DNA from: Clostridiales bacterium UBA1234
Lineage (GTDB): Bacteria; Bacillota; Clostridia; TANB77; UBA1234
DNA: 64,000 bases
Assembly: GCA_002308995.1 (NCBI GenBank)
Contig: DBWQ01000009.1
Location: 12,852 to 76,851, forward strand
Direction: 5' to 3'
Shown: positions 2,405 through 54,681 of the stretch, piece by piece
How the letters are laid out: every line of letters starts with the position of its first letter
Position numbering within the stretch: the first letter of the stretch is position 1
The notes under the pieces: model-generated
The model's input: only the letters and a program-made list of their open reading frames with translations
Database searches by the model: none
What the model was told of the DNA's origin: nothing
Program-made: the position numbers and the translations under genes

Positions 2405-3827
2405 GATGAATGAAATCATGAAAAATGCCTATGAAAAATGGGCTGAGAAAGAGTACATTTTTGAAAAAAAGAATGGTGCATATCAAGCAATTACGATGGG
2501 AGATTTTTTAAGGAAGGTCAATAGCATCGCGCACGAATTAATCAAAAGGGGGCTACAAGACAAAAGAATCATTGTTTTTGGACCAAATTCTACTCATTAT
2601 ATGATGACAGATTTGGCGGTGTTTTCGTATGTTGGTACGAGCGTGAATGTGAACTGTCAAACCGAAAAAGAGGAGTTAGTCAAAATCGTCAAAGCACTTC
2701 AAATTGATGCTATTATCTATGATGAAAGATTAAAAGCTGTTTTTGACCAAATGAAAGAAGAAGTAGGAGAGATACAGTACCTTGGAATGCAGTCTTTTAT
2801 TGAAAGCTTAAGCACGGATGACGAGACATTCGATTTAGAGGGAAGAGACGAAAATCTATGTGCCAAAATCATTTATTCTAGCGGAACTACTTCCACCCCA
2901 AAAGGCATTATGCTTTCTATCAAAAATATTTTCTCTGGTTGGGAATCCCTTCAAAGAAGAACCCCTTTTACCGAAAAAGATGTAGTTTATTTATTCTTGC
3001 CACTTCATCATACATATGCCAATATCTATAATTTTATTTATTCGCTATTATCTGGCTTAAGTATTTATCTATGTAGTGGCATTGATAAGATTGAAGAAGA
3101 ATTACTAGAAGTCAATCCAACCATATTTTGTGGTGTTCCGCTTATCTATAAAAGGATTTATGAGAACCATAAAGAGAATTTAAACACGGTATTTGGTACG
3201 AGAATTAAATATATGTATTGTGGAGGGACAAGATTTGATCCTGAGATTCGCAAAGCATATAAACTATGTGGCTTACCAATGTTTGAAGCCTATGCTTTAA
3301 CAGAAACTGCCTCTTCGTTTAGCATTGAATATCCTAACAAAGATGATTATGAAAGTGCCGGAACGATTTTTGAAGATATTGATGTGAAGATTATCCATCA
3401 AGATGAAGAGGGAGTAGGAGAAATCATCGTTAAAGGCGATAATGTTTTTCTTGGCTATGCCAATAATGAAGAACTCACCAAAAGTGTCTTCACCGAAGAT
3501 GGCTATTTCATCACGGGAGATTATGGCTATATCAAAGATAATAAGCTATATCTTGTGGGCAGAAGAACGGATATCATCATTGGAGATAATGGTGAAAATG
3601 TCTATGTGAAAGAAATCGAAAAAGCATTAAAAGAGTATTGCCAAGATGTTTTAAAAATACAAGCATCTTTGGTAGATGGTAAAATTCATTATAAAATCTT
3701 TATTCATAAAGATAGCCAAGCTAATATTGATGCGATTATTGAAGAATACAATAGCAAAGCAACGAAAAAAGACTGCGTTAAATTCTATGAAAAAGAATAC
3801 ACGGAGCAAATGAATTTGAAAGGTTAA
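2397..3827 (+). CDS. AMP-dependent synthetase/ligase (acyl-CoA synthetase-like).
   Basis: The AMP-binding signature IIYSSGTTSTPKGIML is present, plus the downstream GDYGYI...LYLVGRRTD motif. GGAGG lies 9 nt upstream of the ATG. Confidence 0.8.
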   Translation: MIKMNEIMKNAYEKWAEKEYIFEKKNGAYQAITMGDFLRKVNSIAHELIKRGLQDKRIIVFGPNSTHYMMTDLAVFSYVGTSVNVNCQTEKEELVKIVKALQIDAIIYDERLKAVFDQMKEEVGEIQYLGMQSFIESLSTDDETFDLEGRDENLCAKIIYSSGTTSTPKGIMLSIKNIFSGWESLQRRTPFTEKDVVYLFLPLHHTYANIYNFIYSLLSGLSIYLCSGIDKIEEELLEVNPTIFCGVPLIYKRIYENHKENLNTVFGTRIKYMYCGGTRFDPEIRKAYKLCGLPMFEAYALTETASSFSIEYPNKDDYESAGTIFEDIDVKIIHQDEEGVGEIIVKGDNVFLGYANNEELTKSVFTEDGYFITGDYGYIKDNKLYLVGRRTDIIIGDNGENVYVKEIEKALKEYCQDVLKIQASLVDGKIHYKIFIHKDSQANIDAIIEEYNSKATKKDCVKFYEKEYTEQMNLKG

Positions 3828-3874
3828 ACATGGACGTCCTCATGTCCATAGAAATAATATTTAGGAGGAAACCA

Positions 3875-4987
3875 ATGGATAATCAAAGAGAAAAAGTAGT
3901 TGTTAAAACAAGTATTATTAGTATTATTGCCAATATTATCTTGGCAAGTTTTAAAGCTTTTGTGGGGTTACTTGCCCATTCCATCGCGATTGTTTCGGAT
4001 GCGGTAAATAACTTAACGGATGCACTTTCGAGCATCATTACGATTGTAGGAACTAAGCTTGCTGGTAAGAAGCCAGATAAAAAGCATCCTTATGGTTATG
4101 GCAGAATTGAATATATGACATCACTCATTGTTTCGGGAATCGTGCTTTATGCAGGTATTACCGCACTAGTGGAGTCGGTGAAGAAAATCATTCATCCAGA
4201 GGAGGCAGATTACAGCACCGTCACGCTAATAATTATTGTAGCAGGTATTTTAGTAAAATTTGCTTTAGGCTTGTATGTGAAGAAAAAGGGCAAAGAAGTC
4301 AATTCTGATTCGCTTGTTGCCAGTGGTTCCGATGCCTTTAACGATGCAATTCTTTCGATTTCCGTTTTGGCATCTGCTATTATTTATTTACTATTCCATA
4401 TTAGCCTAGAAGCTTTTGTGGGTGCGATTTTGGGCATCTTTATTATCAAAGCGGGCATAGAATTAATTAGAGAATCTGTCGATAATTTGCTTGGCGTGCG
4501 CATTGAAAGTGGCCTTGCAAAGCAAATTAAAAAGGAAGTCATGAAAGAAGAAAATGTGCAAGGTGCTTTTGATTTAACGCTTCACGATTACGGTCCAGAC
4601 CAGTATTCTGGTTCCATCCATATCGAAGTGCCAGATACCCTAAACGTCGCACAAATTGATAAAATTTCAAGACGTATTACCAAAAATATTAAAGAAAAAT
4701 TTGGTGTAACGTTACATACCGTTGGTGTGTATTCGGCCAATACTAAAGATCAAAAACTAAAAAAGGTGCTTTCCGAAATGCACGATATCGTCTTCAAACA
4801 TGATGGTATTTTGCAAATGCACGGCTTTTATTTTGATGAGCAAGATAAAATGATTCGCTTTGATATTGTGATGGACTTCAAAGTACCAGATAGAGAAAAG
4901 GTTTGCCAAGAAATTTACGATGCAGTACAGAAAAAATATCCGGGTTACGATATTAGTATCAATATGGATATTGATATTAGCGATTAA
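3875..4987 (+). CDS. Cation diffusion facilitator (CDF) family metal efflux transporter.
   Basis: HPYGYGRIEY motif and six predicted TM helices. Start chosen at the ATG 5 nt after the AGGAGG (ORF track begins at 3830). Confidence 0.85.
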   Translation: MDNQREKVVVKTSIISIIANIILASFKAFVGLLAHSIAIVSDAVNNLTDALSSIITIVGTKLAGKKPDKKHPYGYGRIEYMTSLIVSGIVLYAGITALVESVKKIIHPEEADYSTVTLIIIVAGILVKFALGLYVKKKGKEVNSDSLVASGSDAFNDAILSISVLASAIIYLLFHISLEAFVGAILGIFIIKAGIELIRESVDNLLGVRIESGLAKQIKKEVMKEENVQGAFDLTLHDYGPDQYSGSIHIEVPDTLNVAQIDKISRRITKNIKEKFGVTLHTVGVYSANTKDQKLKKVLSEMHDIVFKHDGILQMHGFYFDEQDKMIRFDIVMDFKVPDREKVCQEIYDAVQKKYPGYDISINMDIDISD

Positions 4988-6980: not shown

Positions 6981-7610
6981 ATGTCGGCACTTATTATCTT
7001 ATTAATAATACTCATTTTAATCATCGTAATTTTCGCTTACGTGAAAATAAAGCTATCCAAACTTTTTGAAGCTTGGTTTGGTAGTAGCAGTATTACCGAA
7101 GGACTAAAAATGATGAAACAGCAGCGTGAAGCTTTAGAAACTGAGCCAAAAACACCATACGGAATGGATAGCTTATTTATGCCTCAAATAGCAAGAGATT
7201 TTCCCAACATGAATGTAGAAGAAATGAAGAAGCTAGCTGAAGAGAAACTAATAGACTATTTGCACTCTCAAAAGGATAAAACCTATTCTGAGATTAACCT
7301 TCATAAAACAGTTATCAATCAATATTCTAAAAATAGTTCTACATGCAAATTAGTTTTTCAAACGGCACTAGGGTTTAAAGAGCACATAAAAGATGCCTCG
7401 CACTTCAAAGAAGTGCGCATGAACACAGAATTTATCTATATTTATGATAATTCTAAACTAAAAGCTGGCGAAGCCATTAGCCTAAACTGCCCTAATTGTG
7501 GAGCACCAATCAAAGGAATTGGCCATAAAACGTGTCCATATTGTCATACAGGGCTAATTGATTTGGCAACCAAAACGTGGAAATTTCAAAGAGTAAGCAT
7601 GCTTTCATAG
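6981..7610 (+). CDS. Membrane-anchored hypothetical protein with a C-terminal zinc ribbon.
   Basis: N-terminal hydrophobic helix (LIILLIILILIIVIFAYV) and CPNCG...CPYCH. Confidence 0.5.
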   Translation: MSALIILLIILILIIVIFAYVKIKLSKLFEAWFGSSSITEGLKMMKQQREALETEPKTPYGMDSLFMPQIARDFPNMNVEEMKKLAEEKLIDYLHSQKDKTYSEINLHKTVINQYSKNSSTCKLVFQTALGFKEHIKDASHFKEVRMNTEFIYIYDNSKLKAGEAISLNCPNCGAPIKGIGHKTCPYCHTGLIDLATKTWKFQRVSMLS

Positions 7611-8505: not shown

Positions 8506-9540
8506 ATGAACAACTCAAAAAGGAACTCAATGCATTTTATGAAAAAAAGAATTGGAAGATTGTTTTTCGTTTTTTGTGTGATATTGGCTTTATCGACGAT
8601 TACTTTTGCTGAATCTGATAGTATTTCTTCTATACCATCTGAAGAGGAAAAAAAGGATGCAAGAGAAGATTGGTGGATAGAGGCGTTTGCCTTTCAAATT
8701 GAGGAGCCTAAAGCTGGTGAAAAACCTAAAAAAGATGCGAAAGCTTTGCATGAAGGATATCATGTGACCAAAGTGGTGTGGACTCCCGCTGATAGCTTTT
8801 TTATTCCTGGCAAAGAATATAAGGTAGAAATATTTTTTGACTTGGAACAGAAGTATTATTTGTTAAACAGTATTCCAACTACTATCAATAATAAAGTTGC
8901 CATTCAGCAAGGGAGAAAAGATGGATTTCTTCAAGATGATTCATTATGTGCAGAATACACCTTCCCAGTATTAGAAGGAAAACTAAATAGCATGACGTGG
9001 TCAAAAGCATCTAACTGGGCTATGGAAGAATTAATCAGAGCAAATGATATGGAATTAATCCCAGAAATATTAAAGCAAGAAGATTTAACAACCGCCATTA
9101 CTAGAAAGGAATTTGCTCACATAGCGGTTAGATTATGGGAATCAATCACAGGGAAAACAGCGTCTCCTGTGAAAAATACTCCTTTTACAGACTGTGATGA
9201 TATTGAGGTTTTAAAAGCATATCGCCTTGAAATCACCAAAGGAACGTCTGATACCACCTTTTCACCTGATGCATTGATCACAAGAGAACAAGTTGCTACC
9301 ATGATGACAAGAGCACTTCAAAAAGCAGGAATTAATACCTCAGTAAATAGGAACACGACAAACCTATTTGAAGATGATGAACAGCTTCATTCTTGGGGCA
9401 AGGAATCTGTTTACTTTATGGCAGAGATAGGAATCATCAAAGGAACAGGAGGTAACAATTTTGGAGCAAGTGGAAATGCCTCTAGAGAACAAGCTATCGT
9501 CATTAGTTTCAGAAGTGTTGAAAAATTCAAATTAAACTAG
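8506..9540 (+). CDS. Secreted SLH-domain (S-layer homology) cell-wall-anchored protein.
   Basis: N-terminal signal peptide. Three C-terminal SLH repeats with ITREQ(V/M)ATM and F.D...W motifs. It is a paralog of the C-termini of 18132-19589 and 22995-25007. Confidence 0.8.
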   Translation: MNNSKRNSMHFMKKRIGRLFFVFCVILALSTITFAESDSISSIPSEEEKKDAREDWWIEAFAFQIEEPKAGEKPKKDAKALHEGYHVTKVVWTPADSFFIPGKEYKVEIFFDLEQKYYLLNSIPTTINNKVAIQQGRKDGFLQDDSLCAEYTFPVLEGKLNSMTWSKASNWAMEELIRANDMELIPEILKQEDLTTAITRKEFAHIAVRLWESITGKTASPVKNTPFTDCDDIEVLKAYRLEITKGTSDTTFSPDALITREQVATMMTRALQKAGINTSVNRNTTNLFEDDEQLHSWGKESVYFMAEIGIIKGTGGNNFGASGNASREQAIVISFRSVEKFKLN

Positions 9541-11366: not shown

Positions 11367-11636
11367 ATGGAATATCGATACACACCAAACGGAGTATGTT
11401 CACAGGAAATGATTTTTGAAATAGACGAAGATGACATCATTCAAGATTTTCAAGTCATTGGCGGGTGTAATGGTAATTTAAAAGGCATTAGTCACCTGTT
11501 AAAAGGCATGAAAGTAGAAGATGTCATTGCAAAACTATCTGGTATTTTATGTGGCAGAAGAGCTACTTCTTGCCCAGACCAAATTGCCAAAGCACTTACC
11601 AAATACCAAGAAAGTAAAGCAAAAATCAGTGAGTGA
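11367..11636 (+). CDS. TSCPD-domain small protein (TIGR03905-like).
   Basis: GGCNGNLKGISHLLKGM...ILCGRRATSCPDQIAKAL carries the TSCPD motif. Confidence 0.7.
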   Translation: MEYRYTPNGVCSQEMIFEIDEDDIIQDFQVIGGCNGNLKGISHLLKGMKVEDVIAKLSGILCGRRATSCPDQIAKALTKYQESKAKISE

Positions 11637-34308: not shown

Positions 34309-34346
34309 AAAAATAGGAAACATGTTTTGCATGTTTCCTATTTTGA
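34309..34346. terminator. Bidirectional terminator between the convergent DUF47 and RT genes.
   Basis: AAAAAATAGGAAACATG tttt gCATGTTTCCTATTTT. Confidence 0.75.
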
Positions 34347-35537
34347 ATTTTGTGCATAGTATTCATTTACTAGTGACCTATACCCACATTTTTTGAGCAT
34401 GTCATAAGGAACTTTTTCATAATTTTTTTTGTTGTGTTTTCCGGTGACTAAATAGCGTTCTTGTTCTTGTAGGTATTGGTCGATGATTTTTAAACTCTCA
34501 GCAGTAGTGATCGTAGGGAAGAACCAGTACTTCCAAGAAAGCTCTTCTTTTTCAGCTTTCCCAAAAAACTTGCGATTATATTTACGATTCATGGCTTTTA
34601 AGGCAATCTCAGGAGTTGAGTTTTTCTTTAACATCCACCTTCTGATGCCACGAGCGCTTCTTCGAATTTTTCCTTTAATTTTTCGAAGAGAGTTTTTAGA
34701 TAAATCAATGGTTTTCTCATGAAACGAAAAGCCTAAAAACTCCCATTCATCGGTAGGAGCAAAGAAATATTCTTTTTCGTGGTTTACCTTTAAGTGATAT
34801 TTTTCTAAAAATTGCATCAGCATTTGCTGGTGCTTTTTTAATTCTTCTTCGTTATGACAAAACAAAATAATATCATCAGCATAGCGGGCGTATACTACAG
34901 GCTGATTCCAAAAGTATTCATCCATTTCTTTAATATAGTAATTGGCTAAAAATGCAGAAATAGGCGTACCTGCCATCACACCTTTTTGCTCCGTTAAAAG
35001 CTCACCATGATAGGTAGCGACATTACTTTGAAGCAAGGAAACAAATAGATTGAGGAGCTTCTGGTCAGTAATATCGTATTGTAAATGTGCGATGAGAATA
35101 GAGGTGTCAATACTATTAAAGTAGTTGGAAATATCCACTTTATAGCCATGCATTTTAGAAATATTTTTAATATTACTGATATTTCTAATTGCGGTTTTCA
35201 CACTGCTATTTTTACGAAAAGAATAAAGATTTGGCGCAAATAAATAGTCGTAATCATAAAGCAAATAAGAAAGAAGCTTAAGAGCCATCATTTCGTTTTT
35301 AGAAAAGGTATAAACAGTGCGCTTTTTACCAGAATGTCCTTTAGAAATTAAGTGCTTTTGTGGAATAGAAAAAGAGTAGGTTTCATTGGCGATTTGCGCG
35401 CAAATATCCACATACTCTTTTTTTTGAATAAACTCCTCTAACTCTTTTTTTTCCTTTTGAGGAACAAAATCTTTCTCCATTTTGTAGGCTAAAAATTCAT
35501 CCCATTTTTCTTTACTCGCAATATCCTCTAAAATCAT
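34338..35537 (-). CDS. Stand-alone reverse transcriptase (retron-like / defense-associated RT; not a group II intron maturase).
   Basis: RT motifs 1 to 7 are present: RTVYTFS, YSFRKNSS, YKVDISNYFNSI, GTPISAFLANYY, YARYADDIILFC and LGFSF. A VTG triplet (ERYLVTGKH) of the kind conserved in retron RTs is present. There is no maturase X or endonuclease domain. GGAGGA ribosome-binding site. Confidence 0.85.
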   Translation of the reverse strand: MILEDIASKEKWDEFLAYKMEKDFVPQKEKKELEEFIQKKEYVDICAQIANETYSFSIPQKHLISKGHSGKKRTVYTFSKNEMMALKLLSYLLYDYDYLFAPNLYSFRKNSSVKTAIRNISNIKNISKMHGYKVDISNYFNSIDTSILIAHLQYDITDQKLLNLFVSLLQSNVATYHGELLTEQKGVMAGTPISAFLANYYIKEMDEYFWNQPVVYARYADDIILFCHNEEELKKHQQMLMQFLEKYHLKVNHEKEYFFAPTDEWEFLGFSFHEKTIDLSKNSLRKIKGKIRRSARGIRRWMLKKNSTPEIALKAMNRKYNRKFFGKAEKEELSWKYWFFPTITTAESLKIIDQYLQEQERYLVTGKHNKKNYEKVPYDMLKKCGYRSLVNEYYAQNSK

Positions 35538-35540
35538 ACA

Positions 35541-35682
35541 TCCTCCATAAAAAGGGGAAAGAACAAATTGAGAATCGATTTATCGATTACGACAAGATCA
35601 TATATATTACAGCCACCTGCCAGACTATAACACGTAATATACGAAATCCCACTGCAGATGTTTCAAAAACATCTTTCCCCTT
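35541..35682 (-). ncRNA. Structured 5' leader / candidate msr-msd-like ncRNA of the RT, bracketed by an 11-bp perfect inverted repeat.
   Basis: On the transcribed strand, 5'-AAGGGGAAAGA (+35672-35682) pairs with 3'-UCUUUCCCCUU (+35552-35562), 3 nt before the ribosome-binding site. Internal hairpins include GATGTTT ttg AAACATC and CGTATATTACG. The transcription start is predicted at the first repeat. Confidence 0.4.
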
Positions 35683-45306: not shown

Positions 45307-45344
45307 AAAAAACCTCAAAATGGTCTCATTTTGAGGTTTTTTTT
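45307..45344 (+). terminator. Rho-independent terminator.
   Basis: AAAAACCTCAAAATG gtct CATTTTGAGGTTTTTTTT. Confidence 0.75.
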
Positions 45345-45420
45345 GCGTGAAAAACATGTTTGAAGTGTTGAAAAATCAACATTATAAGTACAACTTATAT
45401 AAAACATAAGAATAATAAAT

Positions 45421-45517
45421 TTTACAAGAAAATCAAATTATGTTAATATCTGAGCCGTAGGGCAAAAAACAAGTACTTGAGATTAAGTTTAAGAGATTTT
45501 TTCTCAAGTATTTTTTG
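45421..45517 (+). promoter_or_regulatory. Promoter plus leader with an intrinsic-terminator hairpin (candidate attenuator) upstream of the AAA+ cluster.
   Basis: TTTACA, a 17-nt spacer, then TAATAT. The leader hairpin AAGTACTTGAGA-N20-TCTCAAGTATTT is followed by TTTTTTG about 35 nt before the ribosome-binding site of 45551. Confidence 0.4.
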
Positions 45518-45550
45518 CGCCGATTTTTTAAGGATTAAAGGAGTAAAAAA

Positions 45551-47608
45551 ATGAAAAAGAATGTATTTGGTTTAGAGGGATTAGAAGAATATGAGGACAA
45601 AAGTGCTACAGCAAAAATCAAAAGCTGCATGAAAGCAAATATTTCGGTATTCCTACATGGTAAACCTGGTACTGGAAAATCGCAAAGAGTAAAAGAATTA
45701 GATCCGGATTGTACCACCATAGAAATGAATTTAAGTCCGATTGAAGATTTTGCTGGAATGAACGTGGTGCTAAACGGCGAGATAAAAAAAGTAATGCCAG
45801 AGTGGCTTCGCTCACTCAAAGAAAAATGTGAAAAAGAGCCACACAAAAATCATATCTTATTTTTAGATGAATTTACAAATGCGCCAGAAAGTATTCAAAA
45901 ACTTGCCTATTCCATTGTGCTGGATAGAAGAGTAGGAAACCAATGGAAACTTCCTCAAAATGTTAGAGTCATTGCTGCTGGAAATGAAGTGGAAGACTCT
46001 ATTGTAGCAACAGAATTACTAGAACCTATGAAAGATAGAGTAGCACATATTACGGTAGAAGATGATTATTCTGAGTGGAGAGAGTGGGCATATTATCATA
46101 GAATTCATCCAGAAATTTTACGCTATCTAGATAAGAACCCTTCATTAAGATTTAGCTATTATGATGAATTAACAGGACTAAATAGGAAAATAACACCAAG
46201 AACTTGGGAAAGAGCTTCAAAGATGCTTTATCAAACGGGAAGCTTTGGTGACTTAATTAGCATTCTTCCTGCTAGTACAGTCTCTTCGATGGTAACGAAT
46301 CATATGCTGGATGGTTTTCCTTATGAAGACATTAGTATATACACACCTGAAAGACATATGAAAGCGTGTATTGAGGCGGACATCCCTGTATTCTTACATG
46401 GAAAACCTGGGGAAGGAAAATCAAGTCGAGTAGAGGCATTAGACCCAAATGCACAAGTATTAGAAATAAACTTACTCCCTGTAGAAGACTTATCTGGAAT
46501 GGTGGTATGTGACAATGGAACTTTAGAAAAGAAAAAGCCAATGTGGCTCACACGCTTAGAAGAAACATGTGCCAAAGAACCAAATAAAAACCATATTTTG
46601 TTTTTGGACGAACTCACCAATGCTATGCCGGTTGTGCAAGGTCTTGCTTATTCTTTGGTACTAGATAGAACGGTGGGAAATACGTGGAAACTACCTCAAA
46701 ATGTGCGTATTGTGGCAGCGGGAAATAGTACAGAAGATTCGATTGCAGCTACCGAAATACCAGAACCGCTTGTGGACCGATTTGCTCACGTCAAAGTAGA
46801 AACAGATATTCATCAGTGGTTAGAGTGGGCTGCCAAAAATGATATCCATCCTGCTATTATGAGTTATTTAGCAGAAAATCATGAGATGGCATTTAAATGC
46901 CAAGAAAACGGAAAAATTGTGACAACGCCAAGAACATGGGAGAGAGCGTCAAATCAATTATGGTATTCTTACAATTTGGATACCCTTACGGGAATTATTG
47001 GTGAAAATTTTACCAATGACTTTTTAGAGTTTTGTTCGACAAGAGTCATGAGTAAAGAAGAAATCCTATCCAATAATGGAACTTTTGATATCCATCAAGT
47101 GGCACATCCTTTTGCATTAATCCCTAACTTATTATCTACAGAGGATTTTGAAGTAGAAAAGGTAAGAGATTTTTTGAGCGAAAACTTCCCACAGGTTGTG
47201 AACTTGTTTGAATCTTTATGGATCAATCGTTCCCCCGAAAAAGATGAAAGAAAGCATATTATTGAAAAATTAAGAAAAAAAGATAGATACGTAAGAAAAG
47301 ATATAAGGCCAAGTAAAGCTTACACATTATTGGAAAATGGTGAAGAATATCAACTAAATGAAAACATGCAAGTCATCAACCCATATCGTTATCATAAAGG
47401 AATAGATTTTGAGGAGGAAGAAGAAATACTACCAAGCGAAGAAGAGGAAAACTATTTGGGAGAAGATATTGCAGAAGAATGGGACTATATGGTGGGGAAG
47501 CAAGGAAAAAATGCCATTATTCGACCTAACTTAACAGTGAAAAGTTTAAGAAAATCTCCAGGAAAATATGAGAAGAAAAAGAAAGCATATGACCTTATGA
47601 GCAGATAA
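45551..47608 (+). CDS. Tandem-duplicated MoxR-like AAA+ ATPase (two AAA_5-type modules in one polypeptide).
   Basis: Two Walker A motifs (FLHGKPGTGKS and FLHGKPGEGKS) and two Walker B motifs (ILFLDEFTNA and ILFLDELTNA). The modules are about 60% identical, and each ends with TPRTWERAS. Confidence 0.8.
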   Translation: MKKNVFGLEGLEEYEDKSATAKIKSCMKANISVFLHGKPGTGKSQRVKELDPDCTTIEMNLSPIEDFAGMNVVLNGEIKKVMPEWLRSLKEKCEKEPHKNHILFLDEFTNAPESIQKLAYSIVLDRRVGNQWKLPQNVRVIAAGNEVEDSIVATELLEPMKDRVAHITVEDDYSEWREWAYYHRIHPEILRYLDKNPSLRFSYYDELTGLNRKITPRTWERASKMLYQTGSFGDLISILPASTVSSMVTNHMLDGFPYEDISIYTPERHMKACIEADIPVFLHGKPGEGKSSRVEALDPNAQVLEINLLPVEDLSGMVVCDNGTLEKKKPMWLTRLEETCAKEPNKNHILFLDELTNAMPVVQGLAYSLVLDRTVGNTWKLPQNVRIVAAGNSTEDSIAATEIPEPLVDRFAHVKVETDIHQWLEWAAKNDIHPAIMSYLAENHEMAFKCQENGKIVTTPRTWERASNQLWYSYNLDTLTGIIGENFTNDFLEFCSTRVMSKEEILSNNGTFDIHQVAHPFALIPNLLSTEDFEVEKVRDFLSENFPQVVNLFESLWINRSPEKDERKHIIEKLRKKDRYVRKDIRPSKAYTLLENGEEYQLNENMQVINPYRYHKGIDFEEEEEILPSEEEENYLGEDIAEEWDYMVGKQGKNAIIRPNLTVKSLRKSPGKYEKKKKAYDLMSR

Positions 47609-47626
47609 AAGAAAGGATGAAAGAAA

Positions 47627-48031
47627 ATGAAAAGTAAAGTAGAAATCATTGATCATTTAATTGAGCATTATACTTGTCCTATTTTGATTAGTAATGAAAC
47701 ATTTAAAGGATATCGAAATGCGGTGTATATTGATGCTAATTGTAGTGACGAAGAATTAAAGTGCTCTTACAAAGAAGGGGGAGAAAAAGTTCTTCCTAAA
47801 TGGTATCAAGAATTACAACAGAAAAGTAAAAATCGTTATTGCTTGCTTGTCATCCAAAACTTAAATGAAGTGGAGGATAAAAAGCAATTACGCTTTAAAG
47901 AAATGATTAAATATGGACAAATCAATCGTATGAAATTGCCAGAAAACTGCATTATTTTTGTCACGCATTCTTATTTAAAAGAAAACAAGATGATGGATAT
48001 GATGATGTGTTTAATGAATCGAGTAGATTAG
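47627..48031 (+). CDS. Degenerate (Walker A/B-less) single AAA-module protein homologous to the neighbouring ATPase modules.
   Basis: KVLPKWYQELQQKSKNRYCLLVIQNLNEVEDKKQL aligns to KVMPEWLRSLKEKCEKEPHKNHILFLDEFTNAPESIQKL. The GKS P-loop is replaced by ILISNETFKG, and the Walker B DE is replaced by QN. Confidence 0.45.
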   Translation: MKSKVEIIDHLIEHYTCPILISNETFKGYRNAVYIDANCSDEELKCSYKEGGEKVLPKWYQELQQKSKNRYCLLVIQNLNEVEDKKQLRFKEMIKYGQINRMKLPENCIIFVTHSYLKENKMMDMMMCLMNRVD

Positions 48032-48041
48032 GAGGGATAAC

Positions 48042-49799
48042 ATGATAAAGGTAGATATTCCAACGATGGAGGAAGTTGCAAGGTTTGGAAGAATTGAGGA
48101 AGTTAATCCTACAGAATTTGCCACCAAAAATGGACAAGATTTTATTAGAGGGTTTCTTGTTCGTCAGAAAAAGGATGGAAAAAAGAGACTTCTTGGATTT
48201 GAACCATGTAAAAATCGATTTGTTGCGTTTGATGAAAATTATGATTATGGTTTGAAACCTATTATTCGTTTAAATGAATGTGAAGAGGATGAAAAGAAAA
48301 AATTGCTGTATATCATTAATAATTGCAATTCTTATAGAGTTCCCATTACACTAGGCGCGATGAGAATGACATTTAAGAATGAAGTTTTGAAGCAAGAATA
48401 CCACAATTTTTGTGAGAAACATTCATGGTATGGAAATGGTGTTTTGATAGGGAAGAAAAAAGAAGACCTTTTATCACTTTCTCATGATGCACTTGCAGAT
48501 GATTACTTGAAAATGTGTTTGCTTCATAAGGCTATCATGAATAAGGAGTATTATAATTCAAATTGTATCCAATGGGACTATGATGCAAAACAGCAGATTC
48601 TTTTTTGTAAAGACACCGTGTTAGGAGTACCTTTGCAAAGAAAGCAAAATAAAAGGGGAGCTTTAACTTTTCCACATAATATTGAATTAGAAGGCTTACA
48701 GTCTATTATCAATCAGGCGGTTGAAAAGATTTCATTGTATCAACCAGAGCGTTATGACCAAAAAGACCTTGCATCTGCTTGTCACTTTGAAGTAAAGAAA
48801 AATCTTTCGGCAGAAGAAAAAATGGAGTATGCATTAGAGGCGGGTCTCCCAGTTTTTTTACATGGTAAACCAGGAGAGGGAAAATCAGCAAGAGCCAAAG
48901 CAATTGACCCAGACTACACTATGCTAGAGCTATGTCTTTCTCCCATGGAAGATTTGGCAGGGATGAATGAGTATGTAAATGGAAAGCTGATCAAAAGAAA
49001 GCCAGAGTGGCTTGTGGAATTAGAACAAAAATGTCAGAAAGAACCTTTTCAAACGCATATCTTATTTTTAGATGAACTGACGAATGCAGAGGAATCGATT
49101 CAAAGTTTGGCCTATTCTCTTGTGCTAAAGAGAACCGTTGCTAACGAGTGGAAACTTCCAGCAAATGTGGGAATTATTGCCACAGGAAACGAGGTAGAAG
49201 ATTCTGCTGCTGCTACCGAAATGCCAGAGCCACTTCGCGATCGTTTTGTTCACATCAATGTGCATACTTCACTAGAAGAATGGCTTGATTGGGCGGGAAA
49301 AAATGAGATTCATCCAGCTATTATTTCGTACCTTACGTTTAGGGGAGAAAGTGCTTTAAGAAGCCAAAAAAAGGAAGGCGAAATTTACACTACCCCAAGA
49401 ACGTGGGAGAGAGCCTCTAAGATGCTAAATGCTACTAATGACGTGAGAGATTTGTTCCCAGTGATTGGGGATTATCAAGCAACGGATTTTATCGCTTTTT
49501 GCAATATGATGACGATAGATAAAGAAGATATAATAAATGGAAATGTGGATAGTTATGTGTTTGATGATATGGACATTGCCATGAAGATGGCGATGGTAAG
49601 AAGCTTAAATGATGTGACGATAGAGGAATTTGAAACAGTAAGAAATTTTGTCAAAACAGCTGGAAAAGAACCACTAGCCTTATTTGAAAACTTATGGATT
49701 TCTGGTGCAAAAGAGGAAAAGTATGAAAGACTAGAAAAAGTGGCAGAGATACATATGGAAGAGGAAGAACAAGAAGGAGTTGGTACCTATGAATACTAA
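48042..49799 (+). CDS. AAA+ ATPase (third active MoxR-like module) with a 270-aa N-terminal domain of unknown function.
   Basis: FLHGKPGEGKS, ILFLDELTNA and TPRTWERASKML. The C-terminal half is about 60% identical to the modules of 45551-47608. Confidence 0.8.
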   Translation: MIKVDIPTMEEVARFGRIEEVNPTEFATKNGQDFIRGFLVRQKKDGKKRLLGFEPCKNRFVAFDENYDYGLKPIIRLNECEEDEKKKLLYIINNCNSYRVPITLGAMRMTFKNEVLKQEYHNFCEKHSWYGNGVLIGKKKEDLLSLSHDALADDYLKMCLLHKAIMNKEYYNSNCIQWDYDAKQQILFCKDTVLGVPLQRKQNKRGALTFPHNIELEGLQSIINQAVEKISLYQPERYDQKDLASACHFEVKKNLSAEEKMEYALEAGLPVFLHGKPGEGKSARAKAIDPDYTMLELCLSPMEDLAGMNEYVNGKLIKRKPEWLVELEQKCQKEPFQTHILFLDELTNAEESIQSLAYSLVLKRTVANEWKLPANVGIIATGNEVEDSAAATEMPEPLRDRFVHINVHTSLEEWLDWAGKNEIHPAIISYLTFRGESALRSQKKEGEIYTTPRTWERASKMLNATNDVRDLFPVIGDYQATDFIAFCNMMTIDKEDIINGNVDSYVFDDMDIAMKMAMVRSLNDVTIEEFETVRNFVKTAGKEPLALFENLWISGAKEEKYERLEKVAEIHMEEEEQEGVGTYEY

Positions 49800-51213
49800 T
49801 TTAAAAAGTGTGATTCGAAAAATACTAGTGAAATTTCCGTCTTTTGGACATACTCTTGCCAATATCCAAATCAAAGAAAATGCATTGATTCAAACAGCTT
49901 GTACCAATGGACAAGTATTATACTATAATCCTAACTTCATTGATAGTTTGTCAGAAAGTCAAAAAGTGTTTTTATTATCGCATGAAATATGCCATGTGGA
50001 GCTAGAACACATGGAACGAGGAAAGGATAAAAACCCTAGATTATGGAACATTGCAACAGATGCGGTGATTAATGCCTATTTAGAGCATGCTGGATTAGAG
50101 CCCATTGAAGGATGTGTCCAAATGCCTGATGCCTATCAAATGCGAGCAGAAGATATGTATGATACACTACTAAAAGAAGCAGAAGCTTCTCAAGAAAAAC
50201 AAGATCAGTCAAATGAAGAAACATCATCCAATGAGCAAGAAGAAACTGCTCAGAAACAAAAAGAATCCACTCAGGAGCCAGAAGAAACTACTCAAAAGCA
50301 ACAAGAAACTATGAATGCAAAGGAGCAAGAAAAACTTGCCAAAAGAATTCAAGAATTGGAAGAAAAATATGGCAAAGGCCATGCCTCTCATGAAGAGTGG
50401 AAAGAGGCTCCTCACCATCAAGTACCTTCATCTGCCAAAGATGAAAAAGCATTTTTTGAAGAAAACGAAGCAGAAAAACAAAAAAAGCTAGAAGACATGA
50501 GAAAACAAATTATTGCAGAAAGTACCCAAGGAGTTGGACAGGAGAGTTTTGGTCAAACATTTAAAGTTGAAATGGAAGAAGAAAAAAAGAAGGTAGTAGA
50601 TTGGAAAAAAATCTTAAAAGCAACGCTAGTAGGCAATCAATATGATTGGCGTTTAAGCCATCGTGTGAGAAATGGTGTGGTGCCTTATGAACTAAAAAAA
50701 GTTCCTCATCCTGTCACAGAGATTTTGCTTGATACAAGTGGCTCCATCAGCGACGTACTTCTTAGAAACTTTTTGAATGAATGTATGGGTGTTTTAAAAA
50801 CTTCTCGTTTAAAAGTAGGTTGTTTTGATACTAGGTTTTATGGTTTTCATGAAATTCGCTCCAAAAGAGATATTGAAAATATGACTTTTGAAGGACGAGG
50901 AGGGACCGATTTTAATGCTGCAGTGAATGCATTCTCGAAAAGTGCGGATAATCGCATTGTCTTTACAGATGGCTGTGCAAATACCCCTGAAAAAACTTGC
51001 AGAGCCACATGGGTAATCTTTGATGATGGTGATAATTATTCGCGAGGTTATGCTGAGGAACTAAACCCTCCTGGAGGGAAAAAGATAATGATTCCTTACG
51101 ATGCCTACTGCGAATTGACACAAGAAAGCCCAAGAGAGTGTGATGATTATGATGATTATGATGACTATAATGATTATGATGACTATAATGATTATGATAC
51201 CCTTGCTGAGTAA
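49789..51213 (+). CDS. Putative metallopeptidase (DUF2201_N, HExxH) plus VWA-like domain protein; the usual partner of MoxR-type ATPases.
   Basis: FLLSHEICHVELEH (HExxH) and the VWA MIDAS motif ILLDTSGSIS ... GRGGTDF ... VFTDG. Asp/Tyr-rich C-terminal tail. Start at ATG 49789 after AAGGAG. Confidence 0.8.
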   Translation: MNTNLKSVIRKILVKFPSFGHTLANIQIKENALIQTACTNGQVLYYNPNFIDSLSESQKVFLLSHEICHVELEHMERGKDKNPRLWNIATDAVINAYLEHAGLEPIEGCVQMPDAYQMRAEDMYDTLLKEAEASQEKQDQSNEETSSNEQEETAQKQKESTQEPEETTQKQQETMNAKEQEKLAKRIQELEEKYGKGHASHEEWKEAPHHQVPSSAKDEKAFFEENEAEKQKKLEDMRKQIIAESTQGVGQESFGQTFKVEMEEEKKKVVDWKKILKATLVGNQYDWRLSHRVRNGVVPYELKKVPHPVTEILLDTSGSISDVLLRNFLNECMGVLKTSRLKVGCFDTRFYGFHEIRSKRDIENMTFEGRGGTDFNAAVNAFSKSADNRIVFTDGCANTPEKTCRATWVIFDDGDNYSRGYAEELNPPGGKKIMIPYDAYCELTQESPRECDDYDDYDDYNDYDDYNDYDTLAE

Positions 51214-51273: not shown

Positions 51274-51315
51274 TAGCACTCTCTACTTGACTTTGCTAAT
51301 AAAAGTGGTATAACT
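51274..51315 (+). promoter_or_regulatory. hsp20 promoter overlapping a degenerate CIRCE-like inverted repeat.
   Basis: TTAGCACTC-N9-CTTTGCTAA (left arm perfect, right arm 6/9). TTGACT, a 16-nt spacer, then TATAAC. Confidence 0.35.
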
Positions 51316-51421
51316 ATAATTGTAATAAGAAAAAACATATATGCATACCCTACAAAAAGAGTATCAACATGTATGAACTTTCCTATTAAAGTAATCATAT
51401 ATTTTAAAAGGAGTGGTTTTT

Positions 51422-51844
51422 ATGTTGATGGTACCAAGAAAAAGAAACGAGTTTGATTTATTTAATGATTTTTTCGGAGGCGACGATTTCTTTACGAGAA
51501 GAGAAAGCACTATTATGAAGACAGATATTAAGGAAAAGAAGGATAGCTATGTCATCGAGATGGATCTTCCAGGCTACGAAAAAGAAAACATTAACCTAGA
51601 ACTTAAGGATGGATACCTAAATGTATCGGCTAAAGTTGAAAAAGAAGAAAAGAACGATGAAAATGAAAAGTTTGTACACAAAGAAAGATTCTATGGACAT
51701 TGTGCAAGAAGCTTTTATGTAGGTGAGCAAATCACAGAGGAAGACATTAAGGCTGAGTTTAAGAACGGTACCTTAAAGGTTAGTGTTCCAAAGAAAGAAG
51801 AGAAGAAAGAACTTCCAGAAGCAAAGCATATTCAAATTCAATAA
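51422..51844 (+). CDS. Hsp20 / alpha-crystallin family small heat shock protein.
   Basis: Alpha-crystallin domain (MDLPGYEKENINLELKDGYLNVSAK ... GTLKVSVPK). AAGGAG ribosome-binding site. Confidence 0.85.
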   Translation: MLMVPRKRNEFDLFNDFFGGDDFFTRRESTIMKTDIKEKKDSYVIEMDLPGYEKENINLELKDGYLNVSAKVEKEEKNDENEKFVHKERFYGHCARSFYVGEQITEEDIKAEFKNGTLKVSVPKKEEKKELPEAKHIQIQ

Positions 51845-51851
51845 AAAAGAA

Positions 51852-51917
51852 GGCTCCCTGAAAAGGGAGCTTTTTTTTTCGGCCAAAAAGGGACAACCTT
51901 TTTTGTCCGATTTTTTG
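51852..51917 (+). terminator. Tandem rho-independent terminators. The second carries a partial copy (C) of the GACCAAAAGGGACA repeat motif.
   Basis: GGCTCCCT gaaa AGGGAGC T9, then CGGCCAAAAAGGGACAACC ttttt TGTCCG T6. Confidence 0.7.
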
Positions 51918-51984
51918 TTGAATTGCCATTTTTTTTGCGATACAATAATATTAGATTAAATGGATGACGAAGGAGGATAATAAG

Positions 51985-52539
51985 ATGGAGTTTTGGAGTC
52001 AAAATAAGGTTTGGATTGTTGTGGTTTCGGTAGTGATGATTTGCATCATCATTTATAACATGATGTTCAAAAAAAGAAACAAGGTAAAAACTGCGTTTTC
52101 AAGTTTGGATGTGATGCTGAAGAAAAGATATGATGTGATGCCTAATTTAGTATCGATGGTTCAAAACTACATGACGCACGAAAGTGAACTTTTAACCAAA
52201 CTAACTAGCTTGAGAGAAAGAGCGCAAAGTGCAAGTTCTATAGAAGAAAATATAGATCTTAATAACGAAATTGATGCCAATATGAGAAAACTAAAAGTAT
52301 CGTTTGAAGCATACCCAGATTTAAAAGCAAATCAAAACTTTTTGCATATGCAAGCAGTTTTAAATGATATCGAAGAGCAAATTTCGGCTGCCAGAAGAAC
52401 CTATAATGCACATGTGGAAGACTATAATAATTTAATTGGCATCATCCCAATGAATTTGTTTGCGCTTTTATTCAGATTTAAACCATATAAACTATTTGAA
52501 ATCACCAATGAAGAAAGAGAGAGTAAAAAATGGATGTAA
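51985..52539 (+). CDS. lemA: LemA family protein.
   Basis: N-terminal TM helix and the LemA core (SSLDVMLKKRYDVMPNLV ... AARRTYNA). Confidence 0.8.
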   Translation: MEFWSQNKVWIVVVSVVMICIIIYNMMFKKRNKVKTAFSSLDVMLKKRYDVMPNLVSMVQNYMTHESELLTKLTSLRERAQSASSIEENIDLNNEIDANMRKLKVSFEAYPDLKANQNFLHMQAVLNDIEEQISAARRTYNAHVEDYNNLIGIIPMNLFALLFRFKPYKLFEITNEERESKKWM

Positions 52540-53603
52540 CCGTAAAAAGTTTAGAAGATTTTGAAAAATACTATCAAAGTAACTATCAAGAGGTTGTATC
52601 TCAGTTTTATGAAAGAATTAAAAGCAAAAAAGGAGAAATTATTGGATTAAGAGTAGCCATTGGAGTGATTCTATGCCTTTTAGTCCCAACACTTTGTGAG
52701 ACTCTTCATTTGAAAGAGATTTTGGGGAGCCGTTATAGTGTGCTCTTATATTGTGCGTATGCACTGATTTTGCTTGGAACCTTTTTTGCCATTAAAACAT
52801 CTTTAGCAAAGTTATTTCAAGAACAAAGTGAAACAATGATCAAAGACATCATTGCCTTTATTTGTTCTAAGAATAAAGACGAAGTTATGTTTGAGCCGAA
52901 ACTGATGATAAGCACTGAAGCATTGGAAAAAATGGAGCTATTTAATTTGGACGTTGTTAAGTATACGGGAAAAAACTATATCAAAGCACCATTTTTTAAG
53001 AATAACATGGTATTTGCAGATATGAAAACCTACACGGTTGAAATTGTAGAAACCAAAAAGACAATCTATAAAAAAGGCAAGAAATATATTAGAACCATTC
53101 GCAAAAGGAAGAAAAAGACATTTTTTGAGGGCGTTTATGTTGGGGCCACCTTAAATAAAAAGAATACCAATCAAATCTATTTAATTCCCAACAATTTTAA
53201 CGATACCGTACTACAAAGCAAAATCATGAGTTATATCAAATTTCACGGAGTGCCAGTAGAATTAGAAAATTTGGAGTTTTCTAAAAAGTACAGAGTTTTT
53301 TGTGATGATGAGGTTCAAGCAAGGTATATTTTATCACTGGGACTTATGGAAAGAATCAATCAATTAGACAAACTCTTTGCGGGTAAAAAGTATATTGTTT
53401 TTAAAGAAGGAAAAAGATTTGCAATTTGCTTAGAGGGAGTTTCTATTCGAGAAATTAAAAACTTAACCCTTCCTGTATTTAGAAATGAGAAAAAAGAAGC
53501 TGCCATTCTTCGTAAGATGTATGAAAAACTAAGCAGATTTTTTGAAATTTATGATGTGTTAGACTTGGGAAATGACTTATATACAAAGTATTTAGAAAAA
53601 TAG
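52530..53603 (+). CDS. Membrane protein; a possible DUF3137-type partner of LemA.
   Basis: Two TM helices near the N-terminus and its position downstream of lemA. Domain identity not verified. Confidence 0.45.
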   Translation: MDVTVKSLEDFEKYYQSNYQEVVSQFYERIKSKKGEIIGLRVAIGVILCLLVPTLCETLHLKEILGSRYSVLLYCAYALILLGTFFAIKTSLAKLFQEQSETMIKDIIAFICSKNKDEVMFEPKLMISTEALEKMELFNLDVVKYTGKNYIKAPFFKNNMVFADMKTYTVEIVETKKTIYKKGKKYIRTIRKRKKKTFFEGVYVGATLNKKNTNQIYLIPNNFNDTVLQSKIMSYIKFHGVPVELENLEFSKKYRVFCDDEVQARYILSLGLMERINQLDKLFAGKKYIVFKEGKRFAICLEGVSIREIKNLTLPVFRNEKKEAAILRKMYEKLSRFFEIYDVLDLGNDLYTKYLEK

Positions 53604-53616
53604 AGAAGGAGAATGG

Positions 53617-54681
53617 ATGAGAGTACAAAAGATTGAAAAAGATGAATTTAGCACGAAATTATATTGCCTTTTAACATTTCGCGTTTCTTGGGAACAATTG
53701 GTATGTATGATTGATGCAATTATTCAGCGTGACTTTAAAGAAAATATTTACGATTTATATGTTAGTGATTCTAATGGAAAAGAGACACCAGTAGTTGGAG
53801 AAATTAGACAACATCATTTTCAAATTCATGAATGTCCTTTTTATCAAAGAGAAAGTGGCTCTATTACTATTTACGGTGCTTCAAGTATTTGGGGAGTGGA
53901 TATTTCATTTACGATATGGAATCAACTGGATAAATGTTTGGTTAAAATATACAAAGATCCCTTTATAGAAAAAGAGGGGGAGCAAGTGTATGATAGGTAT
54001 TTAGATAGTATTGAAATTGAAGGATTTGTCAATTATACGAGAAGGCAATATGAGAATAAAACCGCGGAAAAGACAAAGGTTCCCCAAAAAGAAGAACCAC
54101 AAAATGGCATGATGAATGCGGAATGCTTTGCATGTCATACGAAATTTCAAATAGATGGCACGCAGATTCCTAAAACCCAAAAGACATTTTATTTTACGTG
54201 TCCAAAATGTGGCATGGAGCTAAAACTTGGCAATCCAAACTTTCAAGAACAAACATCAAATGAACCGGCGTCACCAAAGAATGACATAAAAAAAGAAGCA
54301 TCTACAGAAAATACGGTATCAGAAAGAGAACAATTACTTAATGTTATGGTGTTGCCAAAGGACATTAGAAGTAGATCTTTGGAAGAACAAGTAAAAATGA
54401 TTGGATTGCAAATCAACGAAATTAAAAAAGTGCTAAATGAAATCAAAAGTAATCCATCGACATATATGCTAAGCAAAAGGCAAGAAGCCACACAAAAAAA
54501 TGTCCTTAATCGCATCAATGAGAAAAATTACATAGAGGCATTTTTTGAGCTTGCTGATTTTGTGGATGATTACGGTAATCGACATGAGGGAAAAGTATTT
54601 GAGGAAGAAAAAAAGCTGGTAAGCGATATGGTTAATAGGATTTTGATTGCCATATCAAACAATACGAAATCAAATGGTTAA
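53617..54681 (+). CDS. Hypothetical protein with a zinc ribbon.
   Basis: CFACH...CPKCG and GGAGAA ribosome-binding site. Confidence 0.5.
   Translation: MRVQKIEKDEFSTKLYCLLTFRVSWEQLVCMIDAIIQRDFKENIYDLYVSDSNGKETPVVGEIRQHHFQIHECPFYQRESGSITIYGASSIWGVDISFTIWNQLDKCLVKIYKDPFIEKEGEQVYDRYLDSIEIEGFVNYTRRQYENKTAEKTKVPQKEEPQNGMMNAECFACHTKFQIDGTQIPKTQKTFYFTCPKCGMELKLGNPNFQEQTSNEPASPKNDIKKEASTENTVSEREQLLNVMVLPKDIRSRSLEEQVKMIGLQINEIKKVLNEIKSNPSTYMLSKRQEATQKNVLNRINEKNYIEAFFELADFVDDYGNRHEGKVFEEEKKLVSDMVNRILIAISNNTKSNG

Follow-up and report, generated by a model that had tools for sequence, protein, structure and literature searches.

The operon formed by genes A to D, in the 64-kb stretch of DNA analysed here (the window), appears to be a rearranged variant, free of a diversity-generating retroelement (DGR), of a cassette that joins a sensor, a MoxR-like ATPase and a VWA-protease. 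For this reading as a whole, including its mechanism and its role in conflict, we consider the chances to be about even. By analogy with described systems, a conflict or immunity-type sensor-protease system is the most likely biological role.

All four genes are encoded on the plus strand, and their boundaries agree with those of an earlier sequence-only reading: A at 45551–47608 (685 aa), B at 47627–48031 (134 aa), C at 48042–49799 (585 aa) and D at 49780 or 49789–51213 (477 or 474 aa), with the ATG at 49789 as the probable start of D. Spacers of 18 nt (A–B) and 10 nt (B–C) and the confirmed overlap of C and D, in which an AAGGAG and the ATG at 49789 precede the C stop codon at 49797–49799, indicate that the genes form a single tight operon, as had been suggested. 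A terminator-like hairpin of the preceding gene (approximately 45312–45345, read from the sequence) lies 5′ of a promoter-like site with a TG extension, TTTACA-17-TAATAT (45421–45449, plus strand), which was found upstream of A by consensus scan only. The leader contains a terminator- or attenuator-like hairpin followed by a U-tract (45473–45517, plus strand), located just 5′ of the ribosome binding site AAGGAG at approximately 45538. Folding of the leader RNA (45450–45553) gave a ΔG of −26.4 kcal/mol (z = −3.76), and none of 200 shuffled sequences was as stable. The promoter and leader previously assigned to the operon are thus both present, but as consensus and energy predictions only. Two Logan contigs break at about residue 272 of C; a nucleotide repeat shared by A and C was rejected as the cause, as their longest exact match is 21 nt.

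Gene A encodes a tandem double AAA_5 ATPase without an N-domain. Module 1 extends from approximately 45584 to 46285 (Walker A 45659–45682, Walker B 45854–45871) and module 2 from approximately 46325 to 47275 (Walker A 46400–46423, Walker B 46595–46612), followed by a 110-aa tail (47276–47605). The AAA_5 module of C, together with a C-terminal helical region, is encoded at 48792–49799 (Walker A 48864–48887, Walker B 49059–49076). The Walker A motif GKPGxGKS is located at aa 37 and 284 of A and aa 275 of C, and the Walker B motif ILFLDE at aa 102, 349 and 340, respectively. Furthermore, AAGNE or ATGNE with the sensor-1 Asn and DR[VF]xH with the Arg finger occur in all three modules as well as in the family consensus. 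The Pfam model AAA_5 (PF07728, gathering cut-off 22) was matched by A with 48.9 bits over two stretches and by C with 23.0 bits. These scores and the Walker motifs confirm the three intact AAA_5-type modules that had been recognized in A and C. Their identity had been overestimated at about 60%; we obtained 55% (A1/A2), 53% (A1/C) and 50% (A2/C).

The earlier designation as MoxR-like holds at the level of AAA_5 and of the fold, but neither a MoxR-specific model nor a solved MoxR was reached by sequence. The bpMoxR model gave 17 bits against a cut-off of 27, no NCBIfam MoxR model matched, and the family ATPase profile found no PDB chain at E ≤ 0.01, including solved RavA, CbbQ and NorQ. AAA_5 itself is reached at E ≤ 0.001 by only 14 of 41 family members, so that the family represents a divergent branch. 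A match to phrog_1297, annotated as ATPase, was obtained for A (E 3.8e-103 over two stretches) and C (E 3.3e-55), and full-length homologs of A (P0002–P0004) show 42–54% identity.

The product of gene B is a stand-alone AAA alpha/beta core whose P-loop is absent owing to a 7-residue deletion and which lacks the Walker B Glu, the sensor-1 Asn, the Arg finger and the lid. No Pfam model matched B, and BLAST identities to the AAA core were 21–26%. With a B profile built from small ORFs only, hhalign against the AAA profile gave probabilities of 97–98% (E 4e-10 to 2e-12). The AF2 model of B (pLDDT 78, pTM 0.76) has exclusively AAA+ neighbours in the PDB according to Foldseek, with NorQ as the best (TM 0.55) besides McrB, MCM and sigma54 activators. 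At sequence level, B is genuinely but distantly related to the AAA core, and both hhalign and Foldseek support the view that B is a catalytically dead AAA-core paralog that has lost both Walker motifs. Stand-alone relatives of B comprise 1,214 proteins and 262 clusters at 50% identity, all of approximately 120–140 aa, and B is present in 69 of the cassette loci. B represents a small protein family not recognized before, an AAA core devoid of a P-loop, which goes with the ATPase.

Protein D had been described as a putative DUF2201_N metallopeptidase with a VWA MIDAS domain. Pfam matches above the gathering score bear this out for both DUF2201_N (113.2 bits, E 2e-32; approximately 49795–50400) and DUF2201 VWA (44.3 bits, E 2e-11; approximately 50722–51024), as does the HEICH motif at aa 68 (HEICHVELEH, 49981–50010). 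The two domains, the second with the MIDAS motif DTSGS at 50731–50745, are separated by an acidic low-complexity linker, and an acidic D/Y-rich tail follows. D also matched phrog_1314 (E 2e-67). Residues H68, E69, H72 and H77 as well as the MIDAS residues D318, S320, S322, T376 and D397 are invariant in all 64 full-length family members. Judged by these features, D is a predicted zinc metallopeptidase joined to VWA/MIDAS by a disordered acidic linker.

In front of its AAA_5 module, C carries an N-terminal domain (48042–48791, aa 1 to approximately 250). This part had been taken for a 270-aa domain of unknown function; such a domain exists, but it is homologous to the N-domain of the family. 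Compared alone with the family N-domain profile, the window sequence gave a marginal, non-significant match. When aligned together with its clade relatives L117 and L118 to a family profile that excluded the window sequence, hhalign yielded a probability of 94.5% (E 7.8e-8, 205 columns). The N-terminal domain of C is, by profile comparison, a divergent copy of the family N-domain. It lacks the variable-region signature, its WWTxS motif is deleted, and its AF2 model (pLDDT 52) is unusable. Among the family members, 4 of 41 match Pfam DUF6273, and in two members the variable-region segment coincides with the match to the C-terminal end of DUF6273. Six confirmed DGR targets, each compared alone with Pfam, did not reach this model. 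In the literature, DUF6273 is described as a C-lectin-like domain that DGRs target (PMC10743442, PMC11792537); its C-lectin fold is taken here from PMC10743442.

Among uncultured gut Bacilli, in which the family is widespread, 77 genomic loci were surveyed. The basic cassette consists of an N-domain-AAA ATPase, B and D, and this version with a single ATPase gene is the commonest (32 of 77 loci). The locus in the window, with three modules, a dead AAA core and D, indeed differs from the textbook pair of one ATPase and one VWA protein, but its four-module layout is not the rule. Between one and five ATPase genes occur per locus, paralogous or fused and in many variants, and fusions arose independently several times. 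As the number of ATPase genes varies in this way, a fixed hetero-oligomeric design cannot be deduced from copy number. The gene for the VWA/MIDAS partner adjoins the ATPase gene in nearly all complete loci. With one genome per species, at least 306 cassette matches were confirmed, almost all of them from poorly known gut Bacilli.

The gene layout of the window is repeated in three further assemblies, with identities of 42–54%, which shows that the multi-module arrangement is maintained, and the A1/A2 duplication is older than the split from the 54%-identical homolog. A pseudogene array that arose recently by local duplication and contains premature stops, named earlier as a possible objection, was rejected on the grounds of the conserved B family, the old duplication and the recurring layout. 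The flanking genes are mostly housekeeping genes and differ between loci; the surroundings are therefore not those of a typical defence island. In the PADLOC-DB v2 defence models, no significant match was obtained for the four proteins: A matched only a generic P-loop (best E 5e-7, to the AAA region of RtcR), C and D did not match, and B gave a chance-level match to Csn2 (E 0.002). Existing annotation names the cassette genes only 'hypothetical' or 'sigma-54 interacting', and no description of the family was found in the open-access literature searched.

The argument for a putative sensory function comes from DGRs in the relatives of the window cassette. In 13 loci, a reverse transcriptase gene of the same orientation immediately precedes the cassette; where 2.5 kb or more of upstream sequence is available (49 loci), this applies to 10. 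The DGRs comprise an accessory gene, a template repeat and a reverse transcriptase, and their templates, which are rich in Asn codons, match a variable region within the ATPase N-domain. Mismatches between template and variable region fall on template adenines in 132 of 169 cases overall and without exception in three loci (14/14, 12/12 and 12/12). Adenine-specific pairs of template and variable region were identified in L008, L020, L021, L022, L036, L046, L071 and L019, and a single template of L019 matches four ATPase paralogs. Rewriting of the ATPase N-domain by DGRs, as read from these sequence pairs, suggests that the relatives possess a programmable sensor-protease system. In the 64-kb window, a DGR-RT profile found no match, the sole reverse transcriptase (34338–35537, minus strand) belongs to the UG26/DRT class, and no template repeat of the region coding for the C N-domain was detected. 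Hence, the sensor argument is transferred to the window from relatives at 30–45% identity.

We propose the following mechanism. The family ATPase would combine an N-terminal ligand-binding domain (DUF6273-related, of C-type-lectin type) with a divergent MoxR-like AAA_5 module. The N-domain may sense a ligand and, in about a fifth of the relatives, would be reprogrammed by the DGR. D is laid out like NorD, with an N-domain, a disordered linker and a VWA. MoxR proteins bind a finger of their VWA partners in the pore, and linkers are remodelled (PMC9976466, PMC13036017). Similarly, the ATPase ring could grip the VWA domain of D, as MoxR hexamers take up a finger of their VWA partners in the central pore, and ATP-driven remodelling of the D linker might switch on the metallopeptidase or position it against a substrate held by the MIDAS. 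B, which lacks a lid and can neither bind nor hydrolyse ATP, might serve as a structural ring subunit, a cap or an adaptor. In the lineage of the window, a second AAA module would have replaced the sensor domain of A, and the sensor domain left on C would have diverged and would no longer be addressed by a DGR. With one sensor lost and the other diverged beyond DGR access, recognition would be fixed or reduced.

CLec sensors that are diversified by DGRs and connected to MoxR ATPases, vWA proteins and peptidases have been described (PMC7159879, PMC10907252). The closest comparison is offered by the DGR-associated MoxR-vWA 'ternary' conflict systems of VMAP type (Kaur et al. 2020, PMC7159879; Doré et al. 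2024, PMC10907252), which likewise hold a MoxR-like AAA+ protein, a vWA/MIDAS protein and a peptidase per locus. They have a C-lectin-type domain diversified by an adjacent DGR, to which the DGR-targeted, putatively C-lectin-type N-domain in the relatives of the window cassette would correspond, and in both, paralogs have diversified and inactive enzyme copies occur. There are differences, however. The variable domain resides at the N-terminus of the ATPase here and on the vWA protein there, and as peptidase the cassette has a DUF2201_N zincin, fused to VWA, and not a trypsin- or caspase-like effector. A Pfam search of the four proteins found neither a VMAP domain nor another described third component, the third conserved protein being B. 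The hosts are unicellular gut Bacilli with small genomes, whereas VMAP-type systems occur in multicellular cyanobacteria, actinobacteria and Chromatiales, and the window copy has no DGR. CLec-AAA ATPases are also DGR targets in CPR bacteria (PMC10907252, citing Paul et al. 2017); the summary of them given in PMC10907252 does not mention B or a DUF2201 partner.

Extending the proposal, we tentatively raise the possibility that the family is an undescribed intracellular immune or conflict system. In this system, a DGR-programmable lectin-type sensor on a MoxR-like motor would license a VWA-tethered zinc protease, the obligatory B would break ring symmetry or couple the motor to its partner, and the window would hold a hard-wired hetero-oligomeric derivative with one specificity fixed after loss of the DGR. 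Discussion of DGR-targeted MoxR/vWA/peptidase systems has hitherto centred on multicellular bacteria, and that of CLec-AAA fusions on CPR bacteria. Our data give an anatomy to a conserved cassette hitherto annotated as 'hypothetical' or 'sigma-54 interacting' and place a related design, in which the motor itself carries the variable domain, in unicellular gut Bacilli with small genomes. This compact four-gene system lends itself to testing, and the family offers natural comparisons between loci with and without a DGR, with one to five ATPase paralogs and with single or tandem modules.

Alternatively, the operon might encode a MoxR-VWA machine of the classical type that acts as a chaperone or in the maturation of a housekeeping client, with the extra modules as client-tuned paralogs. 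NorQD, CbbQO and RavA-ViaA provide the precedent for such remodelling, for insertion of metals or cofactors and for assembly of complexes (PMC9976466, PMC13036017). As in the cassette, an AAA_5-class ATPase is paired there with a protein composed of an N-domain, a disordered linker and a C-terminal VWA with full MIDAS. The chromosomal site among ordinary genes, the Hsp20 gene immediately 3′ of the window cassette, the absence of a PADLOC match and the retention of the cassette in small genomes, e.g. the 1.46 Mb chromosome CP091726.1, would fit a chaperone. However, the cassette matches no solved MoxR (profile against PDB), and it differs from these chaperones by its multiple or tandem modules, the dead AAA core, the N-terminal sensor-type domain and the peptidase site on the VWA partner. 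HExxH is invariant in D, whereas to our knowledge none of NorD, CbbO and ViaA has been described as a peptidase. Across the loci, no conserved client gene adjoins the cassette, the number of copies varies greatly and fusions have arisen repeatedly. A fixed client is difficult to square with relatives whose ATPase N-domain is hypermutated by a DGR. Taken together, we regard a housekeeping chaperone as unlikely.

Descent from phages was also considered, that is, a domesticated phrog_1297 and phrog_1314 module for DNA replication or host takeover that acts on replication proteins. The PHROG matches are strong: N4-like Schitoviridae and PA5oct-like jumbo phages encode homologs of the ATPase module, C-terminal extension included (E 4e-103), and of the DUF2201_N/VWA protein (E 2e-67), in the same gene order of ATPase, small ORF and VWA. 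In N4-type phages these genes lie beside a DNA helicase gene, the cassettes of L001 and L003 are followed by a dnaB-type loader, dnaI and dnaE, and SSB is found nearby in three loci. Yet the phages have one single-module ATPase, the relatives are only approximately 25–36% identical and lack the N-domain and B, and only 1 of 33 matches on viral contigs is family-like. Replication genes accompany only few of the 77 loci and do not flank the cassette of the window, and a phage origin of this kind is quite improbable. In the phages, a 135-aa ORF separates the ATPase gene from the VWA gene; it was rejected as a relative of B (probability 0.3%), being unrelated to B and the AAA core. The phage VWA protein is misnamed 'HNH endonuclease' in records.

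A decaying relic that has lost its DGR and sensor, is undergoing pseudogenisation and has no current function would agree with the missing N-domain of A, the strongly diverged and poorly modelled N-domain of C and the lack of a DGR in the window, but is scarcely credible in view of the four intact frames, in which A, C and D keep every catalytic motif, the identical cassette copies in two independent read sets and the recurrence of the layout in three further assemblies with protein identities of 42–54%, which points to long-term purifying selection.

The cassette of the window comprises four genes on the + strand. Gene A (45551-47608; ORF of 685 aa) is followed after 18 nt by gene B (47627-48031; 134 aa) and, after a further spacer of 10 nt, by gene C (48042-49799; 585 aa), which overlaps gene D (49780 or 49789-51213). 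These ORFs and the overlapping junction agree with the sequence-only reading. Walker A and Walker B motifs each occur twice in A and once in C, and both products matched AAA_5 of Pfam above the cut-off (48.9 bits for A, 23.0 bits for C). The identity among AAA modules, previously put at about 60%, was 50-55%. D carries the motif HEICH and the MIDAS sequence DTSGS and matched DUF2201_N (E 2e-32) and the DUF2201 VWA domain (E 2e-11). Its peptidase and VWA domains are separated by a long, E/Q/K-rich linker of low complexity (50170-50700), and the protein ends in an acidic D/Y repeat tail (DDYDDYDDYNDYDDYNDYD; 51150-51210). Across the family, linker length varies widely, with D ranging from 374 to 761 aa. 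A promoter-like site is predicted upstream of A, whose leader contains a predicted terminator-like hairpin (dG -26 kcal/mol, z -3.8). Downstream of the cassette (51413-54681) lie genes for Hsp20, a LemA-like protein, a DUF3137 protein and a zinc-ribbon protein. The hsp20 gene has its own promoter-like site (51293-51320); since the interval from D to hsp20 showed no terminator on the + strand, read-through is possible.

When one genome per species was scanned with a pattern, 306 matches to the family were confirmed. The best 77 of these were analysed as loci, their ORFs being classified with locally built profiles. Almost all of these 77 loci are from metagenome-assembled genomes labelled as uncultured Bacilli, Tenericutes, Mollicutes or, wrongly, 'Clostridium'. 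They derive from human, rabbit, mouse and ruminant guts and include a chromosome of 1.46 Mb. The commonest cassette (32 of the best 77 loci) has the order [N-domain-AAA]/B/D, where N-domain stands for the ATPase's N-terminal domain; seven loci have two ATPase genes followed by B and D. Many further variants carry two to five paralogous ATPase genes, have them placed on either side of B or D, or include gene fusions of the types N-AAA-AAA and AAA-AAA. The window order, AAA-AAA/B/N-AAA/D, is unique among the best 77 loci, its relatives being the three loci of proteins P0002, P0003 and P0004. The HExxH…H site of D and its five MIDAS residues show no variation among the 64 full-length members.

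B is a conserved protein. It had no match in Pfam or NCBIfam, and the 1,214 relatives that a profile search recovered all lack Pfam domains and informative names. An exhaustive HMMER search grouped the family into 262 clusters at 50% identity, essentially all of them stand-alone proteins of 120-140 aa. A profile built solely from 69 small ORFs matched the ATPase modules, each time in the same register, and hhalign placed it end-to-end on the ATPase profile's alpha/beta core (probability 97-98%, E 4e-10 to 2e-12). In this alignment, seven residues are deleted at the P-loop site, and the Walker B Glu, the sensor-1 Asn, the Arg finger and the lid domain are absent. The PDB neighbours of the AF2 model of B (pLDDT 78, pTM 0.76) were AAA+ proteins only: NorQ (TM 0.55), McrB, MCM, dynein and sigma-54 activators. 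Their probabilities were 0.9-1.0 and their E-values modest. The description of B as a fourth copy that has lost both Walker motifs was therefore right, and this copy is an old dedicated component rather than a recent product of decay. It might form part of the ring, cap it or work as an adaptor.

Full-length double-module homologs of A (P0002, P0003 and P0004) share 42-54% identity with it, and each is followed by a B homolog of 133-136 aa and then by a third gene. The P0004 contig and the window also have an upstream DsbD-type gene in common. In a neighbour-joining tree, modules 1 and 2 of A paired with modules 1 and 2 of P0002, respectively; hence the tandem duplication is older than the divergence of the two proteins. 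Other tandem fusions (the L001/P0005/P0006/P0011 clade and loci L049 and L067) arose independently according to the tree. The identical A-B-C arrangement was found in two independent read sets. Together with the B-associated homologs and the module tree, this rules out a local accident, and the recent duplication raised as an objection in the sequence-only reading does not hold. The Logan contigs SRR5324850_27 and SRR094926_13568, which are independent assemblies of this locus, both stop at about codon 272 of C (near 48860), exactly where its AAA module starts. A simple repeat does not account for this break, as A and C share no exact nucleotide match longer than 21 nt.

We clustered the flanking ORFs across all loci. 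The most recurrent neighbour, encoded directly upstream and on the same strand, was a reverse transcriptase of about 350 aa (Pfam RVT_1). It was present in 13 loci; of the 49 loci with at least 2.5 kb of sequence upstream, 10 had it. It is often preceded by a 195-aa protein, which matched nothing in Pfam or PADLOC. The gene for this conserved protein (L008:3538-4122; homologs in nine loci, e.g. L062:7000-7581) immediately precedes the template repeat and the reverse transcriptase, the usual place of an Avd-like accessory protein of diversity-generating retroelements (DGRs), but the protein is larger than Avd (about 130 aa). The 80-100-nt intergenic segment between the two genes recurs about 70-105 codons into the ATPase N-domain. 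Mismatches fell on template adenines in 14/14 (L020), 12/12 (L022), 12/12 (L046), 15/17 (L008), 14/17 (L021) and 14/16 (L036) cases, and in 132 of 169 overall, although just 31% of the template positions are adenines. The template-encoded peptides are Asn-rich (AAC/AAT codons), and the repeat ends in a G+C-rich block. These adenine-biased repeats are the standard DGR signature. In locus L019, a single template (2189-2266) matches four paralogous N-AAA genes (at 3810-3887, 7446-7523, 9413-9490 and 11380-11457). These four variable regions are mutually identical, with only 11 of 18 mismatches at template adenines. Possible causes are that the targets have recently been duplicated or have undergone gene conversion, that the assembly has collapsed, or that the DGR is inactive.

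A conserved G-[AVI]-R-P-A-L motif marks the end of the variable region. The variable segment of P0021 and P0024 (aa 56-98) matched positions 127-168 of the 172 of DUF6273 (Pfam), which has been described as a C-type-lectin-like DGR target with variable regions at its C-terminus (PMC10743442, PMC11792537). Only 4 of 41 family members reached DUF6273, and none of six confirmed DGR targets did so when searched individually. The first 110 or so residues of the family N-domain match the C-terminal end of DUF6273 (P0021 aa 56-98), and a later segment (P0026 aa 203-263, WxEVxPIKWxVD region) matches its N-terminal part. The N-domain therefore resembles a DUF6273 that has been split or circularly permuted, its two pieces being separated by an insert containing YGEYPQ.

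The window contains neither a DGR-type reverse transcriptase nor a template copy of the N-domain coding region. Its only reverse transcriptase (34338-35537, - strand, 398 aa) is a UG26-class 'DRT' (PADLOC RT_UG26 E 4.6e-152; Pfam RVT_1), preceded on the same strand by an RT-5 RNA (Rfam RF03026, 59 bits; 35560-35663). The two form a separate candidate RT-based defence element, not of DGR type, about 10 kb from the cassette. Gene A has no N-domain at all. The N-domain of C alone gave a marginal match to the family N-domain and an AF2 model with pLDDT 52. Combined with two clade relatives, and with the window sequence left out of the target profile, it was co-linear with the N-domain of the family (probability 94.5%, E 7.8e-8). 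It retains GLKPIIRL and IQWDYD…LGV but has lost WWTxS, together with any Asn-rich stretch. Lacking a DGR, with no N-domain in A and a very diverged one in C, the window cassette is a DGR-free, sensor-reduced derivative.

The established elements of the system are the parts list and its conservation, a B that is dead beside A, C and D with intact sites, and, in relatives, targeting by a DGR. In MoxR-VWA structures, one VWA partner is bound per hexamer with a VWA finger in the pore, the target is held by the MIDAS site and remodelling of the partner's linker is driven by ATP (PMC9976466, PMC13036017). By analogy, the ATPase ring would engage the VWA domain of D and remodel its long acidic linker. 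This remodelling may control the N-terminal zinc peptidase or feed MIDAS-bound substrate to it. The N-domain would act as the sensor, as suggested by DGR-linked MoxR/vWA/peptidase conflict systems (PMC7159879, PMC10907252). A hetero-oligomeric ring of A, B and C is possible in the window but cannot be the family rule, because the commonest cassette has a single ATPase gene.

DGR-linked MoxR/vWA/peptidase systems and CLec-AAA fusions are an already known kind; no description of the present family was found in the open-access literature searched. It differs from the known systems in having an ATPase that bears the variable domain at its N-terminus, a DUF2201_N peptidase-VWA partner, an obligatory dead AAA-core protein and small-genome gut Bacilli as hosts. 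The window copy is a DGR-free architectural variant of this family.

A housekeeping MoxR-type chaperone would suit the chromosomal setting and the absence of defence-model matches, but fits poorly with DGR targeting, copy-number flux and an invariant protease site. Alternatively, the cassette might be a domesticated, replication-associated phage module: the ATPase and D strongly match PHROG, N4-like phages have an ATPase, a small ORF and a VWA gene beside a helicase, and dnaB, dnaI and dnaE genes adjoin a few cassette loci. However, the phage forms are distant and have neither the N-domain nor B, and viral contigs contain almost no members of the family. Intact reading frames and motifs and clade-wide conservation argue against a decaying relic. 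The DUF2201_N/VWA protein of phages (phrog_1314) commonly bears the name 'HNH endonuclease', as in Acinetobacter phage XC38 (NC_055823.1, 5420-6631) and many N4-like phage records. This looks like an annotation error, passed on between records, for what is an HExxH metallopeptidase/VWA protein.
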